Notes: generated from the letters alone by a model not told the origin. Numbered from the stretch's first letter, positions 3,808 to 45,743 are shown. The stretch is 64,000 bases of DNA from Candidatus Zambryskibacteria bacterium RIFCSPLOWO2_01_FULL_39_39 (GCA_001823925.1 MHWB01000013.1:9338-73337), one strand, 5' to 3'. Numbers and translations are program-made.

Positions 3808-4251
3808 TTACATCCCATCGTTTCTGTCGTTCTCAGCCCGCTCCTTCCGGCGCAGGACGATCAAACTAAGGAAAAGTGCTGCCAGAATGGCGGCTCCTAC
3901 TCTCACGATAAGCGTAGGTATGTCTCGCAGAGACAAAATTTTACCCACAATCGGGGTAACTGTTTCTGCCACTGAGCCGAAGGTTACCACGACGGCGACG
4001 GCGACAAAGCCGGCCATCAATGCGTATTCAACCAGATCCTGACCGCGAGTGTCCGCGGACATCGACCTGAAAAAGTCGTTGGTTGACCGGCAGATCACGC
4101 GTCGCCGGTAGTAAATCAAGAGTCCCGCCACAAAAATCAGCGGGAACACAACAACAAACAAAAGACCCATACCCATAACGTAACGCCTCCTATCCACAAG
4201 TATAGCATAGTTGGCACTTCCTGTCAAGATGTCAAGGTTCGACCTTGACAT
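3808..4251 (-). CDS. Flp/Fap-family type IVb pilin-like protein (true start probably internal GTG near 4130)
   Basis: Motif RGQDLVEYALMAGFVAVAVVV matches Flp prepilin G/xxxxEY cleavage motif plus hydrophobic helix; lies in a ~450-bp segment of markedly higher GC than flanks. Confidence 0.45.
   Translation of the reverse strand: MSRSNLDILTGSANYAILVDRRRYVMGMGLLFVVVFPLIFVAGLLIYYRRRVICRSTNDFFRSMSADTRGQDLVEYALMAGFVAVAVVVTFGSVAETVTPIVGKILSLRDIPTLIVRVGAAILAALFLSLIVLRRKERAENDRNDGM
4229..4251. repeat. Short palindrome atgtcaagg-ttcga-ccttgacat flanked by tgtcaag direct repeats
   Basis: perfect 9-bp stems; same TGTCAAGG family as 11970. Confidence 0.6.
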
Positions 4252-4255
4252 TGTG

Positions 4256-5146
4256 TCAAGAAAGCCTTATTTCACCGAGAGTTTCTTTGATGAGGCACTT
4301 GAGTTCCAAAAGAGAGAGTAGAGTTTGGGTTTCGCCGACTGATATCTGGTGTTCCAGATTTGCCTGTCTCAAAATCTCATCGCGTGGCAATGGTTCTATC
4401 AAAAGTTTTATAATGAGCATTTCTTTTTCCGAACAATCAAAATATTTTTCCTCGTCACTCTGAGACTTTGCGGAAGCAGACTCATCATTTTCCAAATGCA
4501 ACGCTTCCAATAAGTCGTCACTGTCCCTTATTGGTGTGGCTCCAAGACGAATGAGCATATGAGGACCTTGGCTTGTGGTATTAAAAATACTGCCAGGTAG
4601 AGCTAAGACATCTCTATTATATTCGGTCGCTAATCGCGCAGTGATTAAAGTACCTGACTTTTTTTCTGCTTCTATCACCAATGTGGCATGGCTCATACCA
4701 GCCATAATCCTATTTCTTTGAGGGAAGCTCCATTGGGTTGCTTTGAATTCTGAATCAAATTCGTTTAAGAGTGTGCCGCCTTTTTCTACGATTTCCTCTG
4801 CCAGACGAGTATGTGACTGAGGGTGTAAGACATCTAATGAAAGTCCCGAGCCGGGCACGGCGATGGTGGGCAAGTTGTTTTTGAGGGCGGCTCTATGAGC
4901 GATAGAGTCAATGCCTAAAGCCAGACCGGAAACGATAGTAATGGGATAATTTTTCAAACCTTCTATAAAAGTTTCGACCGCCTCCTTTCCATAACTTGTG
5001 TTTTTGCGAGCGCCGACTATGCACAAAAGCTTCCTCTCCCAGTCTGGTATTTTGCCCACATAAAGCAGTTTTTTTGGTAGTTGATTGATTTCTTCCAAGA
5101 GTGGCGGCCAATCTTTTCTCTCTAATTTTTTGATTTCATATTTCAT
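4256..5146 (-). CDS. dprA: DNA processing protein DprA (Smf)
   Basis: 296 aa; Rossmann-like DprA core LCIVGARKNTSYGKEAVE...SGLALGIDSIAHRAAL... Confidence 0.85.
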   Translation of the reverse strand: MKYEIKKLERKDWPPLLEEINQLPKKLLYVGKIPDWERKLLCIVGARKNTSYGKEAVETFIEGLKNYPITIVSGLALGIDSIAHRAALKNNLPTIAVPGSGLSLDVLHPQSHTRLAEEIVEKGGTLLNEFDSEFKATQWSFPQRNRIMAGMSHATLVIEAEKKSGTLITARLATEYNRDVLALPGSIFNTTSQGPHMLIRLGATPIRDSDDLLEALHLENDESASAKSQSDEEKYFDCSEKEMLIIKLLIEPLPRDEILRQANLEHQISVGETQTLLSLLELKCLIKETLGEIRLS

Positions 5147-36914: not shown

Positions 36915-38507
36915 GTGAGACTAGATATAGAAAAAGAAAGTAAACCAGGAGAACATTGGAGTGAAACGGTGGCGCAACAAGTAAAAAAAATATTTCCCAA
37001 CTCTCCGACTTATACCACTGCTGCCGGCATTAGTCCTTCCGGAGTGGTTCATTTTGGCAACTTTAGAGATGTGATAACCTCTTACGCCGTTTATCTACAA
37101 CTAAAATCTCAAGGACTCAACGCTAAATTTATTTTTTCTTGGGACAATTTTGATCGTCTTCGTAAGGTGCCGGCAGGTGTTCCAGAAAATTTTAGCCAAT
37201 ATATTGGTATGCCTCTCTCGGCGATCCCAAGTCCCAAGGAGGGATACAGTTCTTATGCAGAATATTTTCAAAAACCCTTTGAAGAAGCTATGAAAGAATT
37301 AAGTATTGATCTTGAATACAGATATCAAACTGATGAATATAAAAGTGGCCGATATGACGAATTTATTTTTTTGGCCTTAAAAAAAAGAAAAGAAATTGCC
37401 AAAATTTTACTATCTTTAATGACTGAAAAAGGCAAACAAGAAGGAGGAATAGTGGAAGCTGAATATATAGAAAATTATTATCCGATTTCAGTTTATTCCC
37501 ATTTTACCGGTAAAGACTCAACTAAAGTACTTTCTTTTGATGGGAAAAGTTCTATCACTTATCATTGTATAGAAAGTAATAAAACTGAAACTATAGATTT
37601 ATCAAGAGATAGAATTGTCAAACTGGCATGGAAAGTTGACTGGCCGATGAGATGGGGGGTTGAAAACATTGTTTTTGAACCTGGTGGCCATGATCATGCT
37701 TCACCGGGTGGCAGTTTCGATGTTTCTAGTGTTATTGCTAAAGAGATTTTTGGTATTAAGGAGCCAATTTTTGCTGAATATAAATTTGTCGGCATTCAAG
37801 GTGGCGGAGTAAAGATGTCTGGTTCTAAAGGTAATGCCATTTCTCCGACTGAACTTTTGGAAATATATGAGCCGACACTTTTAAAATGGCTTTATATGCG
37901 GAAAAATCCGAGTCAAGCTTTTAGTTTGGCTTTTGATACCGAAATTTATCGACAGTATGATGAGTTTGATAAAGGGGTAAGTTTACCAGAGGAAAGTATG
38001 GCTCTCAAATTGAGTAAAAATCCAAAATATAATAATCCCATTCCTTTTAAGCAGGCAGTGGCTTTAGGCCAGATCACTCAATGGAATGAAGAAAAAATAA
38101 AACATTTAATTTCTGATTTAGGCGTCAATTATGATGAAAAATCGATTCAAGTTAGATTACCTCGTGCTAAAAATTGGCTAGAAAAATATAATCCAGAGGA
38201 AGTCATAAAATTGTTGGATGTTATTAATGTATCTTATATTGTCACTTTGGATGAAAAAACTAAAGAGCAAATAAAAAAATTAAAAAAAGAATTAACCAAA
38301 GAATATTCCTCTATTAAGGAGCTAGAGCTTTTGGTTTATTCTATTCCTAAAGATCCGACTAAAACTGATAAAGAAAATGCGCCGGCTCAAAAAGAATTTT
38401 TCAAACACATCTACAACCTCCTTATCGGTCGTGATGCTGGTCCTAGACTTTCTACTTTCCTCTGGGCGGTTGATCGCGAAAAAGTTTTGAAGTTATTAAA
38501 TATTTAA
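36915..38507 (+). CDS. lysK: Class I lysyl-tRNA synthetase (LysK-type)
   Basis: 530 aa; HFGN (HIGH-like), SWDNFDRLRKVP, KMSGSKGN (KMSKS). Confidence 0.7.
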   Translation: MRLDIEKESKPGEHWSETVAQQVKKIFPNSPTYTTAAGISPSGVVHFGNFRDVITSYAVYLQLKSQGLNAKFIFSWDNFDRLRKVPAGVPENFSQYIGMPLSAIPSPKEGYSSYAEYFQKPFEEAMKELSIDLEYRYQTDEYKSGRYDEFIFLALKKRKEIAKILLSLMTEKGKQEGGIVEAEYIENYYPISVYSHFTGKDSTKVLSFDGKSSITYHCIESNKTETIDLSRDRIVKLAWKVDWPMRWGVENIVFEPGGHDHASPGGSFDVSSVIAKEIFGIKEPIFAEYKFVGIQGGGVKMSGSKGNAISPTELLEIYEPTLLKWLYMRKNPSQAFSLAFDTEIYRQYDEFDKGVSLPEESMALKLSKNPKYNNPIPFKQAVALGQITQWNEEKIKHLISDLGVNYDEKSIQVRLPRAKNWLEKYNPEEVIKLLDVINVSYIVTLDEKTKEQIKKLKKELTKEYSSIKELELLVYSIPKDPTKTDKENAPAQKEFFKHIYNLLIGRDAGPRLSTFLWAVDREKVLKLLNI

Positions 38508-38515
38508 TATAAAAT

Positions 38516-38535
38516 GTAGCGATTAATCGCTACAA
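38516..38535. promoter_or_regulatory. Perfect 20-bp palindrome TGTAGCGATTAATCGCTACA (copy 1), candidate operator
   Basis: exact self-complementary 20-mer; identical copy at 42459-42478. Confidence 0.45.
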
Positions 38536-38569
38536 AAGGAAGAAAAATAGCCTAAATCCGGGCTGTTTT

Positions 38570-38670
38570 TAGTTATCCACTTATCCACAGGTCAAAGTGG
38601 TAGACGAACATAATGAGGTGGTATAAGATGGAACCAAGTGGGAAAAAGTGGATAAGTATTTTAGGTGGTA
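38570..38670 (+). promoter_or_regulatory. mraZ promoter/operator region with phased GTGG(G/T) repeats and GTGGATAAGT repeats
   Basis: GTGG at 38597, 38618, 38638, 38648, 38666 (10-21 bp spacing) as expected for MraZ autoregulatory boxes. Confidence 0.45.
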
Positions 38671-39120
38671 AAAATCAATCAGATGCTCATAGGAGAATAT
38701 ACACACACTATAGATGACAAGAACAGAGTTTCTCTGCCATCTAAGTTTAGATCTCTTATGGGCAAAAAGATTGTGATTACTCCGGGGTTGGATCAGTGTT
38801 TGTTTGCCTTCACCGTCAAAGAATGGGAAAAGATTGCAGGCAAACTATCGGAGAATTCATCAATACTTTCTTCTGATATGCGTAGTTTTGGAAGATATAT
38901 GTTTGGTGGAGCAAGTGAGGTTGAGGTAGATAATATCGGACGAATTTTGGTTCCGGATTTCCTAAGGGAGCGCGCTAATCTCAAAACTAAAGTAGTTTTG
39001 ATAGGGGTGCAAAATCGATTGGAAATATGGAACGAGAAATCGTGGACCGATTATAAGAGACAAGTAGAAAAAAGTGCCGATGGTCTGGCAGAAAAATTAT
39101 CAGGTCTAGGCATAATGTGA
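38665..39120 (+). CDS. mraZ: Transcriptional regulator MraZ (true start likely MLIGEY at ~38683)
   Basis: two MraZ repeats with DxxxR motifs (DDKNRVSLP, DNIGRILVP). Confidence 0.85.
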   Translation: MVKINQMLIGEYTHTIDDKNRVSLPSKFRSLMGKKIVITPGLDQCLFAFTVKEWEKIAGKLSENSSILSSDMRSFGRYMFGGASEVEVDNIGRILVPDFLRERANLKTKVVLIGVQNRLEIWNEKSWTDYKRQVEKSADGLAEKLSGLGIM

Positions 39121-39129
39121 TCCACCACG

Positions 39130-40029
39130 ATGGCTCATGTAAGTGTTCTTTTAAAAGAAGCTATAGACGGACTCTCTCTGGAAGACGGTGATATCTATTT
39201 GGATGCGACCGTCGGGAGTGGTGGCCACATGGAAGAGGTCTGGCAAAGGATGCAAGGAAGAGTAACTCTTACCGGCATTGATGCCGATCTCATGTCTATA
39301 ACAATAACTGAAGAGAAGTTAGCTCTTTCCGGAGCCAAGCCGAAACTTAGGGTGCTCAATTTTAGAAATATTGATAAAGCTCCTGAAATTTTGGACATCA
39401 AAAATCCAACAAAAATCTTATTTGATCTTGGTTGGAGCACTGACCAGTTTGACGAAGGGGGTAGAGGCTTTAGTTTCCAAAAAGATGAACCTCTCATTAT
39501 GACTTTCGCTAGCAAAGCTACTCTAGACGAAACTACTGCTTATGATGTGGTAAATGTCTGGGGTGAAGAAAATCTGGCCGACGTTATTTACGGATACGGT
39601 GAAGAAAGGTACGCCAGAAGAATTGCTAAAGCTATAGTAGAGGCAAGAGGAGAGAAACCGATTGAAACCTCAAAGGAGTTGGCAGAGGTGGTAAAAGCTT
39701 CGGTACCGATATTTTATCGCTTTGGGAGGATTCACCCAGCCACCAGGACTTTCCAAGCCATAAGAATAGCCGTCAATGACGAACTTCAGGCTCTCAGGGG
39801 AGGTTTGGAAAAGGGGTTTGAGATTTTGAAAGAAGGGGGCAAGATGGCCGTGATCTCATTTCATAGCTTGGAAGACAGAATAGTTAAAAACTTCTTCAAA
39901 CAGCAAGTGGCCATGAATAGAGGAAAACTTCTAAACAAAAAGCCAATTGTACCAAGTGAGGAAGAGATAGGTAACAACCCAAGATCTAGAAGTGCCAAAC
40001 TAAGAATACTTCAAAAAATCTCAGCATAA
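39130..40029 (+). CDS. rsmH: 16S rRNA (cytosine1402-N4)-methyltransferase RsmH
   Basis: 299 aa; HVSVLLKEAI, DATVGSGGH SAM motif. Confidence 0.9.
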   Translation: MAHVSVLLKEAIDGLSLEDGDIYLDATVGSGGHMEEVWQRMQGRVTLTGIDADLMSITITEEKLALSGAKPKLRVLNFRNIDKAPEILDIKNPTKILFDLGWSTDQFDEGGRGFSFQKDEPLIMTFASKATLDETTAYDVVNVWGEENLADVIYGYGEERYARRIAKAIVEARGEKPIETSKELAEVVKASVPIFYRFGRIHPATRTFQAIRIAVNDELQALRGGLEKGFEILKEGGKMAVISFHSLEDRIVKNFFKQQVAMNRGKLLNKKPIVPSEEEIGNNPRSRSAKLRILQKISA

Positions 40030-40059
40030 ATACTTCAAAAAATTTCAATATAAATAAAA

Positions 40060-40386
40060 ATGGCCGATATTATAAAACAAAAAACCAAGTCTCTAGTGAT
40101 GCACAAGATCACCAATTATGCGCTAGCTTTTTTTATCTTTGCTCTCGCTTTTTCTTATATATATTTTGCCAATCTGGCTGTCCGCAACCTAACTATCTTA
40201 GAGAAAACAAAAGACAAGAAGCAGTCTTTAAGTGTGACAGTAAGCGAAATGGAATCAAAACGTCTTTCAATAGAAAACACCATGAATATGGAAAAGACGC
40301 TAAGTTTGGGTTTTGTGGAAGTAGAAAATCCTATTTTTATAATGAAGTCTGCTAAAAAGACTACTCTTTCTCTTAAAATAGATTAA
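40060..40386 (+). CDS. ftsL: FtsL-like small bitopic division protein
   Basis: 108 aa, single TM, position between rsmH and ftsI. Confidence 0.4.
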   Translation: MADIIKQKTKSLVMHKITNYALAFFIFALAFSYIYFANLAVRNLTILEKTKDKKQSLSVTVSEMESKRLSIENTMNMEKTLSLGFVEVENPIFIMKSAKKTTLSLKID

Positions 40387-40395
40387 AATAAATAA

Positions 40396-42117
40396 ATGAC
40401 CGGCAGGATTCGTTTTTTATCCATTATTATAATCATGGTGGCGCTCATCATGTCTATTCGTTTGTATTTTGTGCAAATAGTACATGGTAAGTCCTTCACA
40501 ACTCTCGCCGAGAGACAAAATATAAACGAAAATACTATTTCTTATGATAGGGGAGATATTTATTTTGAAAGCAAAGATGGAGAAGTGATACCAGCGGCAG
40601 TTTCTAGGTCTGGTTTTACTGTTGCCATAAATCCTAAAATAATAAAAGATCCAGAAGAGATTTATAAAAATTTGAGTAAGGTTTTGGTCTTGGACAAAGA
40701 AGAGTTTATCACCAAAACTTCAAAGAAGACCGACTCTTATGAAGAAATTGCAAAACATTTAAATACAGAAACAGCTGACAAAATAAAAGCTTTAAATATT
40801 TATGGTGTTACCATTGCAACCGATAAATGGCGTTTCTATCCTGGGGGCAAATTGGCCTCTAGCATTATCGGTTTTGTGGCCTACAACGAAGACGAATTGG
40901 CTGGTCGGTATGGGTTGGAAAGATACTATGAAGATATTTTAAAAAAAGATCCTTCCAAAGCTTATAACAATTTTTTTGCTGAATTTTTTTCTAATGTTAA
41001 AGAATCCCTGTCGCAGTATCCACAAGAGGAAGGTAATATCATCACTTCTATTGAACCGGCAGTGGAGCTTTTCCTTGAAGATGAACTGAAAAATGTCAGG
41101 GAAAAGTGGGGAAGCAATGGGGCGGGTGGCATAATCATAAATCCAATGAATGGAGAGATTGTGGCGATGGCTTGGAACCCGTCTTTTGATTTAAACAATT
41201 TTAAAGAAAGTGATGTCAGTCTTTTCAATAATCCCTTAGTGGAAAATAGATACGAAATGGGTTCTATCATAAAACCTCTCACTATGGCGTCTGGTATTGA
41301 CTTGGGTACAGTTTCGGCAACTAGCACTTATTACGATGCCGGCTTTTTATTTTTAAACAACAAGCGTATTTCAAACTATGACAATAAAGGTAGGGGCACG
41401 GTTAGTATGCAAGAAGTCTTAAATCAATCTTTAAACACAGGCGCTGCCTTTGTGGCGATGAAAATGGGCAATGAAAAATTTAGAGATTATATGAAAAATT
41501 TTAGCGTTGGCACAGAAACTGGTATTGATCTGCCAAATGAAGGTATTGGTCTCACCAACAACCTAGATAGCAAAAGAGATATTGAAATTGTCACCGCCTC
41601 TTATGGTCAAGGAGTGGCTTTTACCCCTATCGCTACCGTCAGGGCTCTCTCGAGTTTGGCCAATGGTGGAGTACTCATCACTCCCCACTTAGTTAAAAAA
41701 ATAGAATACGAAACAGGTCTTTCAAAAAAAGTCTCTTTTGCTCCGGGTAAACAGGTGATCAAAAAAGAGACTTCAGAAGAGATTACTCGAATGTTGGTGG
41801 GGGTCGTCGACAAAGCTTTGCGGGGCGGTACCGCCAAAATACCGGGCTACTCGGTGGCGGCCAAAACTGGTACTGCCCAGATGACAGATGAAGGCAGGGC
41901 GGGCTATGTAGAAGGCAAGTATTTGCATTCTTTCTTTGGATATTTCCCAGCTTATAAGCCTAAGTTTTTAGTTTTTCTTTTTCATATTTATCCCAAAGAT
42001 GTTCGCTATGCTTCTGAGACTCTAACCGACCCATTTTTAAACATTACCAAATTTCTTATAAATTATTACCAAATCCCTCCTGATCGGCCGGAAGATCTCA
42101 GTACTAAACCACAATAA
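40396..42117 (+). CDS. ftsI: Penicillin-binding protein FtsI-like (class B transpeptidase)
   Basis: 573 aa; N-terminal TM, SxxK (GSIIKP), SxN, KTG (KTGTAQ). Confidence 0.85.
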   Translation: MTGRIRFLSIIIIMVALIMSIRLYFVQIVHGKSFTTLAERQNINENTISYDRGDIYFESKDGEVIPAAVSRSGFTVAINPKIIKDPEEIYKNLSKVLVLDKEEFITKTSKKTDSYEEIAKHLNTETADKIKALNIYGVTIATDKWRFYPGGKLASSIIGFVAYNEDELAGRYGLERYYEDILKKDPSKAYNNFFAEFFSNVKESLSQYPQEEGNIITSIEPAVELFLEDELKNVREKWGSNGAGGIIINPMNGEIVAMAWNPSFDLNNFKESDVSLFNNPLVENRYEMGSIIKPLTMASGIDLGTVSATSTYYDAGFLFLNNKRISNYDNKGRGTVSMQEVLNQSLNTGAAFVAMKMGNEKFRDYMKNFSVGTETGIDLPNEGIGLTNNLDSKRDIEIVTASYGQGVAFTPIATVRALSSLANGGVLITPHLVKKIEYETGLSKKVSFAPGKQVIKKETSEEITRMLVGVVDKALRGGTAKIPGYSVAAKTGTAQMTDEGRAGYVEGKYLHSFFGYFPAYKPKFLVFLFHIYPKDVRYASETLTDPFLNITKFLINYYQIPPDRPEDLSTKPQ

Positions 42118-42124
42118 AAAAAGG

Positions 42125-42334
42125 CTTCCAGGGTGCTCTGCTACGTGCACCCCGGGTAGCCTTAGTGACTGACTCAACGAAAGGGCACCACTCCTTTCGT
42201 GCTGAGGATAGTGGGATCGGTACCTCAACATCCAGCGATTATGACCCGTAGTATCCTGCAAAACAGGACCCTTCGTTGGCTGATTATTATTATGCACGAT
42301 ATTTAAATAATTGCAAATGTGTGCCTAAAACACT
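42125..42334. ncRNA. GC-rich structured segment of unknown identity next to tRNA-Glu (candidate small RNA)
   Basis: ~50% GC with multiple hairpins (e.g. acgaaagg-gcaccact-cctttcgt); on minus strand ends in hairpin + T8; no ORF; could not match to SRP, RNase P, tmRNA or 5S consensus. Confidence 0.2.
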
Positions 42335-42336
42335 TG

Positions 42337-42408
42337 TGACGCTACGGGGGATCGGACCCCGATTCCAGCCTTGAGAAGGCTGTGTCCTAACCATTAGACG
42401 ATAGCGCC
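42337..42408 (-). tRNA. tRNA-Glu (anticodon CTC), no encoded CCA
   Basis: minus-strand GGCGCTATCGTCTAATGGTTAGGACACAGCCTTCTCAAGGCTGGAATCGGGGTCCGATCCCCCGTAGCGTCA; D arm GTCTA..GGTTAGGACA is Glu-like; anticodon loop TTCTCAA. Confidence 0.85.
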
Positions 42409-42458
42409 TCAAGTAAAAATAATAACACTAAAATCCATTTATACAAATTTTTTAAACT

Positions 42459-42478
42459 TGTAGCGATTAATCGCTACA
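42459..42478. promoter_or_regulatory. Perfect 20-bp palindrome TGTAGCGATTAATCGCTACA (copy 2)
   Basis: identical to 38516-38535 including 3' AAA flank. Confidence 0.45.
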
Positions 42479-42617
42479 AATAGATAGTATTGCTTTCTGT
42501 TAGTTTTTTTAATTATTATTATACACACCCTCTATTTTATTTCAAAAAATTACGTTGTATAATTTTGGTGTGAATAAATGGTCGAGTAAACTTAATAAAT
42601 ATTAAAAATTAAATCAA

Positions 42618-42806
42618 ATGGGTAAATTAGCACACTGGCTCCTCATTATTGGAGGCCTCAATTGGCTCCTAGTTGGTCTATTGGGTTGGGATATAGGTAA
42701 TTTGTTTGGTGGACAAGAAGCCGTTGTTTCAAGAATTATCTACATTCTAGTTGGTCTCTCGGCTCTCCTCGCTTTGAAACCAAAATCTTCTGCTCCTCAG
42801 ATGTAA
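42618..42806 (+). CDS. DUF378-like small membrane protein
   Basis: 62 aa; LLIIGGLNWLLVGL..D motif and two TM helices. Confidence 0.5.
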   Translation: MGKLAHWLLIIGGLNWLLVGLLGWDIGNLFGGQEAVVSRIIYILVGLSALLALKPKSSAPQM

Positions 42807-42986: not shown

Positions 42987-45743
42987 ATGGAATATAAATT
43001 CCCATTGCCAAAAGAACCTTTTAAAAATAGAGAAGATGAGATCTCTCATTTACGCAAATTGATTGCCGAAAAAGAAAAGAATTTAGAAAACATTGGTTTA
43101 AAAAAAGATTTTTTAACACCAGCCAAAGAGGCTATCACAGAATACAAGACGGCTCCCACCACTTCAGCGCTCCATCCTGAATATGAAATAAAAAAAGAAG
43201 AAATAGACAAAATCGTACTCAAACTTTCTCCCGAAGAGCACGACAAACAAATAAATGAACTGGTAAATTTGGCCAAAGAAAAGGGCATCAAAAACGCTCT
43301 CTCGGTAGTAGAAAAAATGGGTAATTTCCATATTACCGATGATTTCCATCGTTTTATTGCTGAGTATTTGAAAGAAGGTGCTACTCTCCCCGGTATAAAT
43401 ATTAAAGAGAAAATTTCCAAAGGTTTAAATATGTCTCTTTATGAAATTTTAATACCGGAAGAAAATGATAAGAGCGGTGTTAAAAATACTTTAGAAGAAG
43501 TGATCTCCGGAATGGAGCAATTTTATGCTGGCATGCTCTCTATCTCGGACAGCAGTAAGCAAGAGGAAAATTGGATATCTTTAGAGATAGCTAACGCCAA
43601 TTTTTCTCAAGAAATAATTTTTTATGTGGCGGTACCGTCTTTGCGCAAAAGTCTTTTTGAAAAACAAATTCTCTCTATTTTTCACAATGCTAAAATCACC
43701 GAAAAACCAGATGACTACAATATTTTCAATGAAAAAGGTGTGACTTCTGGCGCTTTTGCCTCTTTTTCCAAAAACCCAATTTACCCTATCAAAACTTATG
43801 AAAGCTTTATCCACGATCCGCTCAATGTGATACTTTCTGGTTTTTCAAAAGTAAACAGAGATGGGGAAGGGGCGGCTATCCAACTCATTTGGTCACCCTC
43901 GGGAGACAAATATGTCAAAAAATATAAAAGCGCTTTAGGTAAACACCAAAAGGGCACACCACTCAAAGAGGCCATCGATATCCCCGATGGTGTTTCGGAA
44001 GAAATTTTACACACCTTTAAAGATGTATTCTTCTCGTCTTCAAAGTCTGGAAAGAAAGATGATTTAGATAAAAAAAGAGAAGGCATCGATGAAGGTGCTG
44101 TAGCCGAAATAAACAAAAAAATAACAGCGCCAATCGTTAGGTGCAACTTGCGCCTTCTTACATCTTCAAATACTAAAGAGGAAGCCGAAGAAATCTTAAA
44201 CAGCTTAAAATCGAGTTTCAATCAGTTTGATAATACTTTGGGCAATGCTTTTGAATGGAAAAAGGCAGAAAAGGGTGATTTGCGAAACTTAGTCAAAAAT
44301 TTTAGTTTTCGTATTTTTGATGACTCTTCTGCTTTGCCGATGAACTTGCGAGAAGTGACTTCAATCATGCATTTCCACACCAAAGCTTTGAGCGCTTCCG
44401 AGGGCCTGCGCCAATCTAGATCGGCTACTGCTCCGGCGCCACTCGATATTGGCAAGGAGGGGATACTGCTTGGTGTAAACAACCACCGTAATGAGAAGAC
44501 AGAGATAAAAATAACTGCTGATGATAGGCTGAGGCACTTCTATTGTATCGGACAGACTGGTACTGGTAAGACGACTCTGCTTAAAGAGATGATTATTCAA
44601 GATATGCAAATGGGTCACGGTGTTTGTATGATCGACCCTCACGGCTCTGACCTGCAATCTGTTTTGGCCAATGTGCCACCCGAGCGTTTCGAAGATGTCA
44701 TCTATTTTGATCCGGCATATACCGCGAGGCCCTCGGCTTTAAATATGCTTGAATATGATGAAAATTTCCCAGAGCAAAAAACTTTTGTGGTCAATGAGCT
44801 TTTTAGTATTTTTAGAAAATTATATGGCAATGTCCCAGAATCAATGGGTCCAGCTTTTGAACAATATTTTAGAAACTCGGCGCTTTTGGTGATGGACGAT
44901 CCAAGTTCAGGTAATACTCTAGTTGATATGTCGCGGGTGCTGTCAAACAAAGCTTACAGAGACCTCAAAATATCTAAATGTAAAAATCCTCTGGTGAAGC
45001 AGTTTTGGGTCAATGCCGAAAAGACGACCGGCGAGCAAGGTTTGTCCAACTATGTACAGTATGTTACCAACAAATTTGATGTCTTTTTGGCAAACGATAT
45101 TATGCGACCAGTTATTGCTCAAGAAAAATCTTCTTTTAATTTCCGCGATATTATGGACAATAAAAAAATACTTCTGGTCAATCTTTCTAAAGGCAGGCTG
45201 GGGGATATCAATGCAAATTTAATAGGACTTATTTTGGTGGGTAAGATACTCATTGCCGCCCTTTCTAGGGTGGATAGTTTTGGCAAAGATTTTCCGCCTT
45301 TCTATCTATATATAGATGAGTTTCAAAATATTACTACCGACTCCATCTCCACCATTTTATCTGAAGCCAGAAAATATAAACTTTCTTTAAACATTGCTCA
45401 CCAATTTATTGCTCAATTGGAAAAGGGTATTAGCGATGCCGTCTTTGGCAACGTCGGCTCCATATGCGCCTTCAGAGTAGGAGCCGAAGATTCTGAGACT
45501 TTGGAGAGTCAATTTGTACCCACTTTCTCTAGTAACGACCTAATGAATATAGACAATTATAATGCTTACTTGAGACTTCTGGTAAATGGCAAACCGGCCA
45601 AACCCTTCAATATAGAAGTGCCACCACCACCCTCGGGGGACATAAATCAGGTAGAAAAACTTAAAGAAATGTCATATCTCAAATACGGCAAACCTCGCGA
45701 AGAGATAGAGAAGCTCGTAATGGAAAAATATAAAATAGCCTAA
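42987..45743 (+). CDS. Soluble TraD/VirD4/TrwB-like P-loop NTPase with ~500-aa non-ATPase N-terminal region
   Basis: 918 aa; Walker A IGQTGTGKTT followed by MIDPHGSDL, Walker B YLYIDEFQN, C-terminal KYKLSLNIAHQF...FRVGAEDSETL like coupling-protein all-alpha/TraM-recognition region; no TM helices. Confidence 0.5.
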   Translation: MEYKFPLPKEPFKNREDEISHLRKLIAEKEKNLENIGLKKDFLTPAKEAITEYKTAPTTSALHPEYEIKKEEIDKIVLKLSPEEHDKQINELVNLAKEKGIKNALSVVEKMGNFHITDDFHRFIAEYLKEGATLPGINIKEKISKGLNMSLYEILIPEENDKSGVKNTLEEVISGMEQFYAGMLSISDSSKQEENWISLEIANANFSQEIIFYVAVPSLRKSLFEKQILSIFHNAKITEKPDDYNIFNEKGVTSGAFASFSKNPIYPIKTYESFIHDPLNVILSGFSKVNRDGEGAAIQLIWSPSGDKYVKKYKSALGKHQKGTPLKEAIDIPDGVSEEILHTFKDVFFSSSKSGKKDDLDKKREGIDEGAVAEINKKITAPIVRCNLRLLTSSNTKEEAEEILNSLKSSFNQFDNTLGNAFEWKKAEKGDLRNLVKNFSFRIFDDSSALPMNLREVTSIMHFHTKALSASEGLRQSRSATAPAPLDIGKEGILLGVNNHRNEKTEIKITADDRLRHFYCIGQTGTGKTTLLKEMIIQDMQMGHGVCMIDPHGSDLQSVLANVPPERFEDVIYFDPAYTARPSALNMLEYDENFPEQKTFVVNELFSIFRKLYGNVPESMGPAFEQYFRNSALLVMDDPSSGNTLVDMSRVLSNKAYRDLKISKCKNPLVKQFWVNAEKTTGEQGLSNYVQYVTNKFDVFLANDIMRPVIAQEKSSFNFRDIMDNKKILLVNLSKGRLGDINANLIGLILVGKILIAALSRVDSFGKDFPPFYLYIDEFQNITTDSISTILSEARKYKLSLNIAHQFIAQLEKGISDAVFGNVGSICAFRVGAEDSETLESQFVPTFSSNDLMNIDNYNAYLRLLVNGKPAKPFNIEVPPPPSGDINQVEKLKEMSYLKYGKPREEIEKLVMEKYKIA

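Follow-up and report, generated by a model that had tools for sequence, protein, structure and literature searches.

We show that a perfect 20-bp palindrome, TGTAGCGATTAATCGCTACA, which occurs twice in a stretch of DNA from Candidatus Zambryskibacteria bacterium RIFCSPLOWO2_01_FULL_39_39, is identical to sites that flank genes for TrpR-like proteins in other Patescibacteria. The stretch is 64,000 nucleotides long (GCA_001823925.1, MHWB01000013.1:9338-73337) and is referred to here, at its full length, as the window. From sequence comparisons, we consider it highly probable that both copies are binding sites of a dimeric TrpR-like helix-turn-helix (HTH) protein, which would represent a new subfamily specific to Patescibacteria. 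What appears to be new is a TrpR-like subfamily whose gene has its own putative operator on both sides. The observations that carry this proposal are the conservation of the site, its association with the regulator gene, the geometry of the regulator promoter, and the co-variation of protein and site. The two copies in the window, neither of which is assigned a strand, are the following:

38515-38534: palindrome copy 1, TGTAGCGATTAATCGCTACA, a putative TrpR-like regulator site.
42458-42479: palindrome copy 2, TTGTAGCGATTAATCGCTACAA, perfect over 22 bp in its extended form and located where tRNA-Glu and the DUF378 gene diverge.

A sequence search bears out the original prediction that an exact, perfect 20-bp palindrome is present twice in the window, and it returns exactly two exact copies, at 38515-38534 and 42459-42478. 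The coordinates first given were correct for copy 2 and one base off for copy 1, which had been placed at 38516-38535. The ends of copy 2 (TTGTAGCG..CGCTACAA at 42458-42479) extend the symmetry to 22 bp, and this 20-mer, with its 22-bp form at copy 2, is the longest perfect palindrome of the whole window. The shared AAA described directly 3' of the palindrome is found at both copies, and the annotation agrees with their placement in the lysK-mraZ spacer and between tRNA-Glu and the DUF378 gene. No further copies, degenerate ones included, were found in the window at up to three mismatches, nor at up to five. The view that chance is an unlikely explanation is upheld by dinucleotide-preserving shuffles of the sequence, none of which (0 of 100) contained a match to the palindrome. 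Counting the flanks beyond the ends of the window, the density is two copies per ~80 kb. Alignment of the 100-nt flanks of the two copies, in both orientations, revealed no homology past the palindrome and one or two A/T bases. It had also been considered that the motif might occur only at these two places, as part of a longer duplicated segment; this is ruled out, since the flanks fail to align.

The exact 20-mer was found in 53 public Patescibacteria stretches, 38 of them from metagenomes and 15 from eight metagenome-assembled genomes labelled Saccharibacteria, Zambryskibacteria, Kaiserbacteria or 'Patescibacteria group', against a chance expectation of ~0.5 matches for an exact 20-mer in the 596-Gb genome collection. 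We fetched DNA loci (L numbers below; P numbers denote homologous proteins and their loci), searched them with the invariant core GCGATTAATCGC and removed duplicates, which yielded 59 unique sites. The exact 20-mer accounts for 52 of these, and the other seven deviate in the outer four bases only, mostly in a symmetric manner (ACTA..TAGT, TATC..GATA, CGTA..TACG). Decayed copies are almost absent, with one asymmetric variant set against the 52 exact sites in ~600 kb. About 55 of the 59 sites are intergenic, although the DNA is ~87% coding by heuristic open reading frame (ORF) calls. Symmetry continues beyond the 20-mer, the flanks being ~90% A/T at +1 to +3 and 86% purine at +5. One exact palindrome lies within the coding sequence of RNase HII, where it encodes RVAINRY (L009, 128-147); the RNase HII orthologue in L056 has unrelated sequence at that position. 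In the GC-rich genome of L047, two exact palindromes stand 134 bp apart downstream of a regulator gene (420-573), each within a longer repeated unit (cttcctgcacc..aaacccacc-PAL-ggt). Viral contigs (IMG/VR) gave no match for the palindrome or for its TGCA variant, and we rejected a phage or viral origin on this basis. A tRNA-linked element was ruled out as well, a tRNA adjoining the window copy only.

Pfam annotation of the flanking ORFs identified one recurring neighbour, a protein of 131-155 aa from the Trp_repressor family (PF01371), and all-against-all clustering of these ORFs revealed no second neighbour family that recurs comparably. By six-frame profile search, a gene of this family is present in 12 motif-selected loci, corresponding to 10 unique genes, and 11 of these loci have an exact palindrome no more than ~45 bp from the gene. 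Overall, 15-16 of 17 loci have a palindrome to either side of the regulator gene; when near-matches are counted, the motif-selected regulator genes with both sides visible all carry a site on each side. The upstream site is present at every regulator locus where that side is visible. In most exact-palindrome loci a TATAAT, TACAAT or similar hexamer follows 5-6 nt after its end, which puts its centre near -28 of the regulator promoter. The downstream site lies 7-40 nt past the regulator stop codon, often has longer arms (28-40 bp), and is separated from the upstream one by 430-530 bp. A fixed spacing to the -10 was not found for all sites, AT-rich flanks offering -10-like hexamers at all offsets; a spacing of 5-6 nt occurs mainly at the regulator's own promoter and at a few solo sites, where the palindrome stands without the regulator gene (L013/L022). 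In related Zambryskibacteria genomes, the regulator gene is located between thrS and gyrB, and the order dnaE-thrS-...-regulator-gyrB is stable within the Zambryskibacteria-like clade. A 105-aa ORF between two sites in L006 was examined as a further candidate and is not a member of the TrpR-like family.

An independent test started from contigs chosen by the homologous protein, through sequence search, and not by the motif. P0016 has the exact 20-mer on each side. P0014 and P0007, which share the recognition helix STSTIGR, have TGTAGCGATGCATCGCTACA on each side, with a symmetric change of the centre from TTAA to TGCA. The more distant homologues have palindromes of their own: P0034 has TACCGCGGTTAACCGTGGTA on each side, P0048 (Kaiserbacteria) has TATAGCGATATATCGCTATA on each side with a downstream copy that forms a 40-bp perfect palindrome, P0055 has TCTTACGATATATCGTAAGA on each side, in three copies in all, and TTCAATGATTTAAATCATTGAA and GTTCAATAGTTCAAACTATTGAAC stand on each side of P0078 and P0089, respectively; at P0068 the palindrome is upstream only. 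Within these protein-selected loci of 5-18 kb, the cognate palindrome is limited to gene-flanking positions. The variant palindromes shift together with the recognition helix (STSTIGR, SDSTVRD, SVSTIRR, SPSTVAR, SRPTIKN, SRATIMN), and dyad symmetry is kept through all changes, both in the centre (TTAA to TGCA or TATA) and in the outer pairs listed above. Palindrome and recognition helix thus change jointly while the two-sided layout is kept, a pattern characteristic of a DNA-binding protein paired with its binding site.

Most family members score above the Pfam cut-off for PF01371, which is 27 bits (among them L015, 37.7; P0023, 36.5; P0048, 41.9; P0078, 52.3; P0068, 50.1; P0089, 50.7). The family profile matches the TrpR-like structures 3frw, 3g1c and 3kor at E=2.4e-6, with STSTIGR aligned to STATISR. 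The family is large, with 1,857 clusters at 50% identity (E<=1e-10), and of uniform length; the protein, ~135 aa, consists of a TrpR-like core and a basic C-terminal tail. We rejected two named relatives as its identity. Against TrpR proper (NCBIfam TIGR01321, cut-off 67.25 bits) the proteins score 17-28 bits, and no trp or aro genes stand beside any of the 59 sites. Against HisR/YerC-YecD (NCBIfam TIGR02531, cut-off 42.2 bits) only P0078 passes, at 44.4 bits, with no more than 0-16 bits for the clades whose sites are this palindrome, and no his genes stand beside the sites. TrpR-family operators are 20-bp palindromes, with the consensus TGTAcTnGTnnACnAgTACA for TrpR and TGTAnTArnnnnyTnTTACA for proteobacterial HisR (PMC9413887). 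The palindrome described here shares the TGTA-N12-TACA layout with the TrpR and HisR operators.

Cross-genome conservation, intergenic placement, the two-sided association with a TrpR-like gene and co-variation all support the original prediction of an operator for a dimeric transcription factor, possibly a global regulator. The regulators put forward as candidates at that time (MraZ, LexA-like, Xre) find no such support, the associated protein being of the Trp_repressor family. What we infer from these patterns is how the system acts: that the protein binds, whether it represses or activates, what its effector is, and which genes it targets in the window. A dimeric TrpR-family protein would bind the palindrome as its operator, and a dimer bound at the upstream site, centred near -28, would occlude RNA polymerase and result in autorepression. 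Further copies would serve as sites in intergenic DNA beside housekeeping genes, and the window would hold two such solo sites. There, the bound protein would most likely repress or block transcription, and the candidate targets are the mraZ operon, tRNA-Glu and the DUF378 gene. For the window's own genome, we assume that the regulator gene is present.

Solo sites adjoin housekeeping genes of varied kinds, among them thrS (recurrent), tsaE and rnhA (twice each), scpA, smpB, rpoB/rplL, the convergent pair SMC and RNase R (twice), gyrB, RNase Y, peptidoglycan enzymes and aminoacyl-tRNA synthetases. Operator-like geometry is found at rnhA in L020 and L031, where a leaderless promoter follows, with 13 nt between the end of the palindrome and the -10. 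In Saccharibacteria, it is a conserved promoter that follows, its -35 being 22 nt downstream of the palindrome. This promoter and its ribosome-binding site (TTGCAA-17-TTAATG, GGAGG; L015 6430-6503, L021 1596-1665, L044, L051, L039) form a conserved control region that drives unrelated ORFs of 72-92 aa at a syntenic position; the small gene behind it is therefore hypervariable. The most frequent neighbour of either the regulator gene or a solo palindrome is thrS (L004, L018, L028, L035, L054-L056, L070), and tsaE, a gene for threonine-dependent tRNA modification, adjoins palindrome sites twice. The recurrence of thrS and tsaE is a possible hint at the effector.

The genes and promoter-like sequences around the two window copies are the following:

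36915-38507, plus strand: class I lysyl-tRNA synthetase gene (lysK), with its stop 7 nt before copy 1.
38487-38515, plus strand: promoter-like TTGAAG-17-TAAAAT, 9 of 12 consensus matches (chance alone would give ~0.9 sites of this quality in the region).
38683-39120, plus strand: mraZ, heading the mraZ-rsmH-ftsL-PBP cluster 3' of copy 1; its start codon is also supported by the homologue in L036.
42336-42408, minus strand: tRNA-Glu(ctc), the closest gene whose 5' side faces copy 2.
42438-42445, minus strand: alternative extended -10, TGTATAAA, 15 nt from copy 2 toward tRNA-Glu.
42485-42490: TAGTAT hexamer, 6 nt past copy 2, at the spacing seen at TrpR-like gene promoters.
42518-42545, minus strand: promoter-like TTGAAA-16-TATAAT, directed toward copy 2 and tRNA-Glu, a strong match (11 of 12 to consensus).
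42556-42563, plus strand: extended -10 of the DUF378 gene, TGTATAAT, 77 nt from copy 2.
42618-42806, plus strand: DUF378 gene, across copy 2 from tRNA-Glu; copy 2 lies 139 nt upstream of it.

Copy 1 ends 148 nt before the mraZ ATG at 38683. The promoter match at 38487-38515, whose -10 shares its last base with the start of copy 1, weakly suggests that the palindrome would span ~+1 to +13 of a transcript toward mraZ. The 5' end of tRNA-Glu(ctc) is 50 nt from copy 2, which lies upstream of it. If transcription started from the promoter at 42518-42545, copy 2 would occupy ~+33 to +52 of the pre-tRNA leader, which is the geometry of a roadblock. If it started from the extended -10 at 42438-42445, the centre of the palindrome would fall near -37, an offset of the same class as at the rnhA promoters of L020 and L031. 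Directly after the DUF378 gene, at 42987-45743, lies the gene for a 918-aa protein with TraG/VirD4/HerA-like ATPase motifs. Upstream of mraZ, and separate from the palindrome, is a block of GTGG / TTATCCAC repeats (38566-38660), within which a perfect DnaA-box 9-mer, TTATCCACA, occurs. This block is kept almost base for base in the relative L036 (5325-5420), and its repeats are probably MraZ boxes rather than an origin. An MraZ operator was rejected as the identity of the palindrome, the GTGG repeats being a block of their own that is kept in L036, where the palindrome does not directly precede the mraZ leader. The interval from greA to mraZ differs between the two genomes, holding a class I LysRS in the window (36915-38507) and a class II LysRS and a cyclophilin in L036 (2164-4379), a relative that is 76-78% identical, in what looks like a non-orthologous displacement; each of the two intervals retains one palindrome.

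A number of observations weigh against the proposal that the window copies are operators of a TrpR-like protein. The 64-kb window lacks a TrpR-like gene, as does the sequence searched past its two ends (~17 kb). The Zambryskibacteria-type clade that uses the exact palindrome (P0001/L002) falls just under the PF01371 cut-off (25.9 vs 27 bits). The AlphaFold (AF2) model is all-helical, with a pLDDT of only 64, and the top Foldseek ranks are TrpR and TrpR-like chains with E-values that are not significant. The placement of solo sites is also problematic. Their positions relative to the neighbouring genes are heterogeneous; 8 of the 27 that can be classified (~30%) lie between convergent genes and ~1 between divergent genes, where the background is 18% and 17%, so that divergent promoter regions are not enriched. 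Several of the convergent sites lie past the neighbours' own terminator hairpins (L005, L008, L023, L028). Such placement between convergent genes is unlike that of a classical promoter operator. Finally, in L036 the mraZ leader is conserved, yet the palindrome, within the same greA...mraZ interval, lies ~870 bp upstream behind another gene. Because of this distance, the link between copy 1 and mraZ as its regulatory target is weak.

The placement of the solo sites is part of the case for a different use of the same protein-palindrome pair, which may act mainly as a protein-dependent roadblock, insulator or chromosome-organising site at gene ends. The sites that flank the regulator and those between convergent genes would then stop read-through in genomes with short intergenic spacers. 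In favour of this, a site lies past the regulator stop codon in 15-16 of 17 loci, even where the next gene is convergent, and both the convergent bias and the position of several sites just past terminator hairpins would be accounted for. In the window, copy 2 is downstream of the 11/12 promoter match and inside the tRNA-Glu leader, and copy 1 follows lysK by 7 nt. The numbers are small and the gene calls heuristic, and classical operator geometry is found at the regulator's own promoter, at rnhA and at the Saccharibacteria small-ORF promoters. We regard a role of this kind as a serious though clearly less probable alternative to promoter repression. It is just as tentative to propose a self-flanking module that sets protein-dependent transcription boundaries at gene ends across streamlined genomes, in place of metabolic repression, and whose regulator gene is itself insulated by its two sites and occasionally lost or gained between them.

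Transcriptional operators of a TrpR-like regulator remain our preferred reading of the palindromes when mobility is considered. One could suppose that palindrome, gene and palindrome form a mobile cassette, such that palindromes are footprints or attachment sites and solo copies are empty sites with no regulatory role. Three pairs of occupied and empty loci with conserved flanks (L020 vs L031, L035 vs L010, L015 vs L021) agree with such a cassette. In these, the palindrome stands without the regulator at L031 4524, L010 4553 and L021 1576, so this gene has been acquired or lost at syntenic sites. The varied genomic contexts of the regulator gene, and a layout formally analogous to that of repetitive extragenic palindromes and their transposases (REP/RAYT), point in the same direction. 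In L035, a 42-bp direct duplication of the gyrB 3' end (4240-4285 and 4875-4916, one mismatch) flanks the palindrome-regulator-palindrome unit. This duplication is a one-off: past the palindromes, the other 10 of the 11 regulator loci show neither direct nor inverted repeats. The gene encodes an HTH protein only, with no nuclease or recombinase domain; its position next to thrS and gyrB is stable in the Zambryskibacteria-like clade, the empty sites retain a palindrome that belongs to the promoter of the next gene, and there are almost no decayed copies and no viral matches. We regard a mobile cassette as very improbable. The earlier suggestion of a very small mobile repeat fares no better, with no target-site duplications, low copy number, no viral matches and no decayed copies. 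A REP/RAYT or miniature inverted-repeat (MITE-type) element was likewise rejected, given an HTH gene only, the lack of direct repeats at 10 of 11 loci, and two copies in 80 kb.

Least probable of all, by a small step, is an RNA hairpin (8-11 bp stem, UUAA loop) that serves as an intrinsic terminator or as a processing or stability signal: such a hairpin would be stable (-10.7 to -13.3 kcal/mol, z-scores of -4 to -6), a simple scan flags copy 1 as terminator-like on the minus strand, and the longer arms of many downstream copies at regulator genes would suit it, but copy 1 is followed on the lysK strand by AAAAGG and no U tract, copy 2 is not flagged by the scan, the palindrome at the regulator promoter is upstream of the -10 and hence untranscribed, the loop stays self-complementary when it changes (TTAA, TGCA, TATA), the sequence itself, beyond its pairing, is invariant across classes with symmetric flanks, and neighbouring genes own separate canonical terminators beside the palindrome. 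No Rfam match was found at or near the palindromes, in the window or in 12 loci, and an intrinsic (Rho-independent) terminator was rejected because no U tract follows on the upstream gene's strand. Motifs of the parS, LexA, CIRCE, NrdR, Fur and LacI types were dismissed on sequence.

Patescibacteria (Candidate Phyla Radiation), which are ultrasmall bacteria, make up a large share of bacterial diversity, and their gene regulation is almost undescribed; our literature search found no paper linking the Trp repressor or YerC to this group. The palindrome provides a rare handle in this regard, pairing a large and uniform protein family with a precisely predictable DNA site. The work defines a conserved architecture, in which a gene has an operator-like site on each side, and offers a first list of candidate targets (thrS, tsaE, rnhA, scpA, smpB, tRNA-Glu and the mraZ cluster). 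The few cultivable Saccharibacteria carry the same palindrome, so the system is directly testable, and the co-variation of site and recognition helix constitutes a natural data set for rules of protein-DNA recognition.

The closest parallels are found among TrpR-family repressors. Like E. coli TrpR, the proteins described here belong to PF01371 and are associated with a 20-bp TGTA-N12-TACA palindrome that has a TTAA-like centre and is placed at the regulator's own promoter, as the TrpR operator is over that of trpR (PMC9413887). In contrast to TrpR, the Patescibacteria proteins are ~135 aa long and extended by a basic C-terminus, the inner half-site reads GCGAT in place of CTAG, a second putative operator lies past the stop codon of the regulator, and trp or aro genes are not found beside the sites. 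HisR/YerC-YecD, the TrpR-like histidine repressor of Firmicutes, offers the best matches among solved structures (3frw, 3g1c, 3kor), with the recognition helix STATISR where the Patescibacteria family has STSTIGR, and it also uses 20-bp palindromic operators with frequent autoregulation (PMC9413887). It differs in its consensus, cacTTTAnnnnnnTAAAgtg, in protein length (<100 aa), and in a regulon of histidine biosynthesis and transport, genes that were not found beside the sites here.

Two other systems resemble the arrangement more than the protein. In REP/RAYT, a gene also stands between copies of a short palindrome that is scattered intergenically as well, often at the 3' ends of genes; the flanked gene there encodes a Y1/HUH transposase and not an HTH protein, and the palindrome described here is of low copy number and conserved across classes rather than species-specific. 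Auxiliary operators that act by DNA looping (lac O2, gal OI, deo) likewise have a second operator within the same transcription unit, a few hundred bp past the one at the promoter. No helical phasing is evident between the two sites that flank the regulator gene, and, unlike in these classical systems, the second site here lies past the stop codon and is conserved across the whole protein family.

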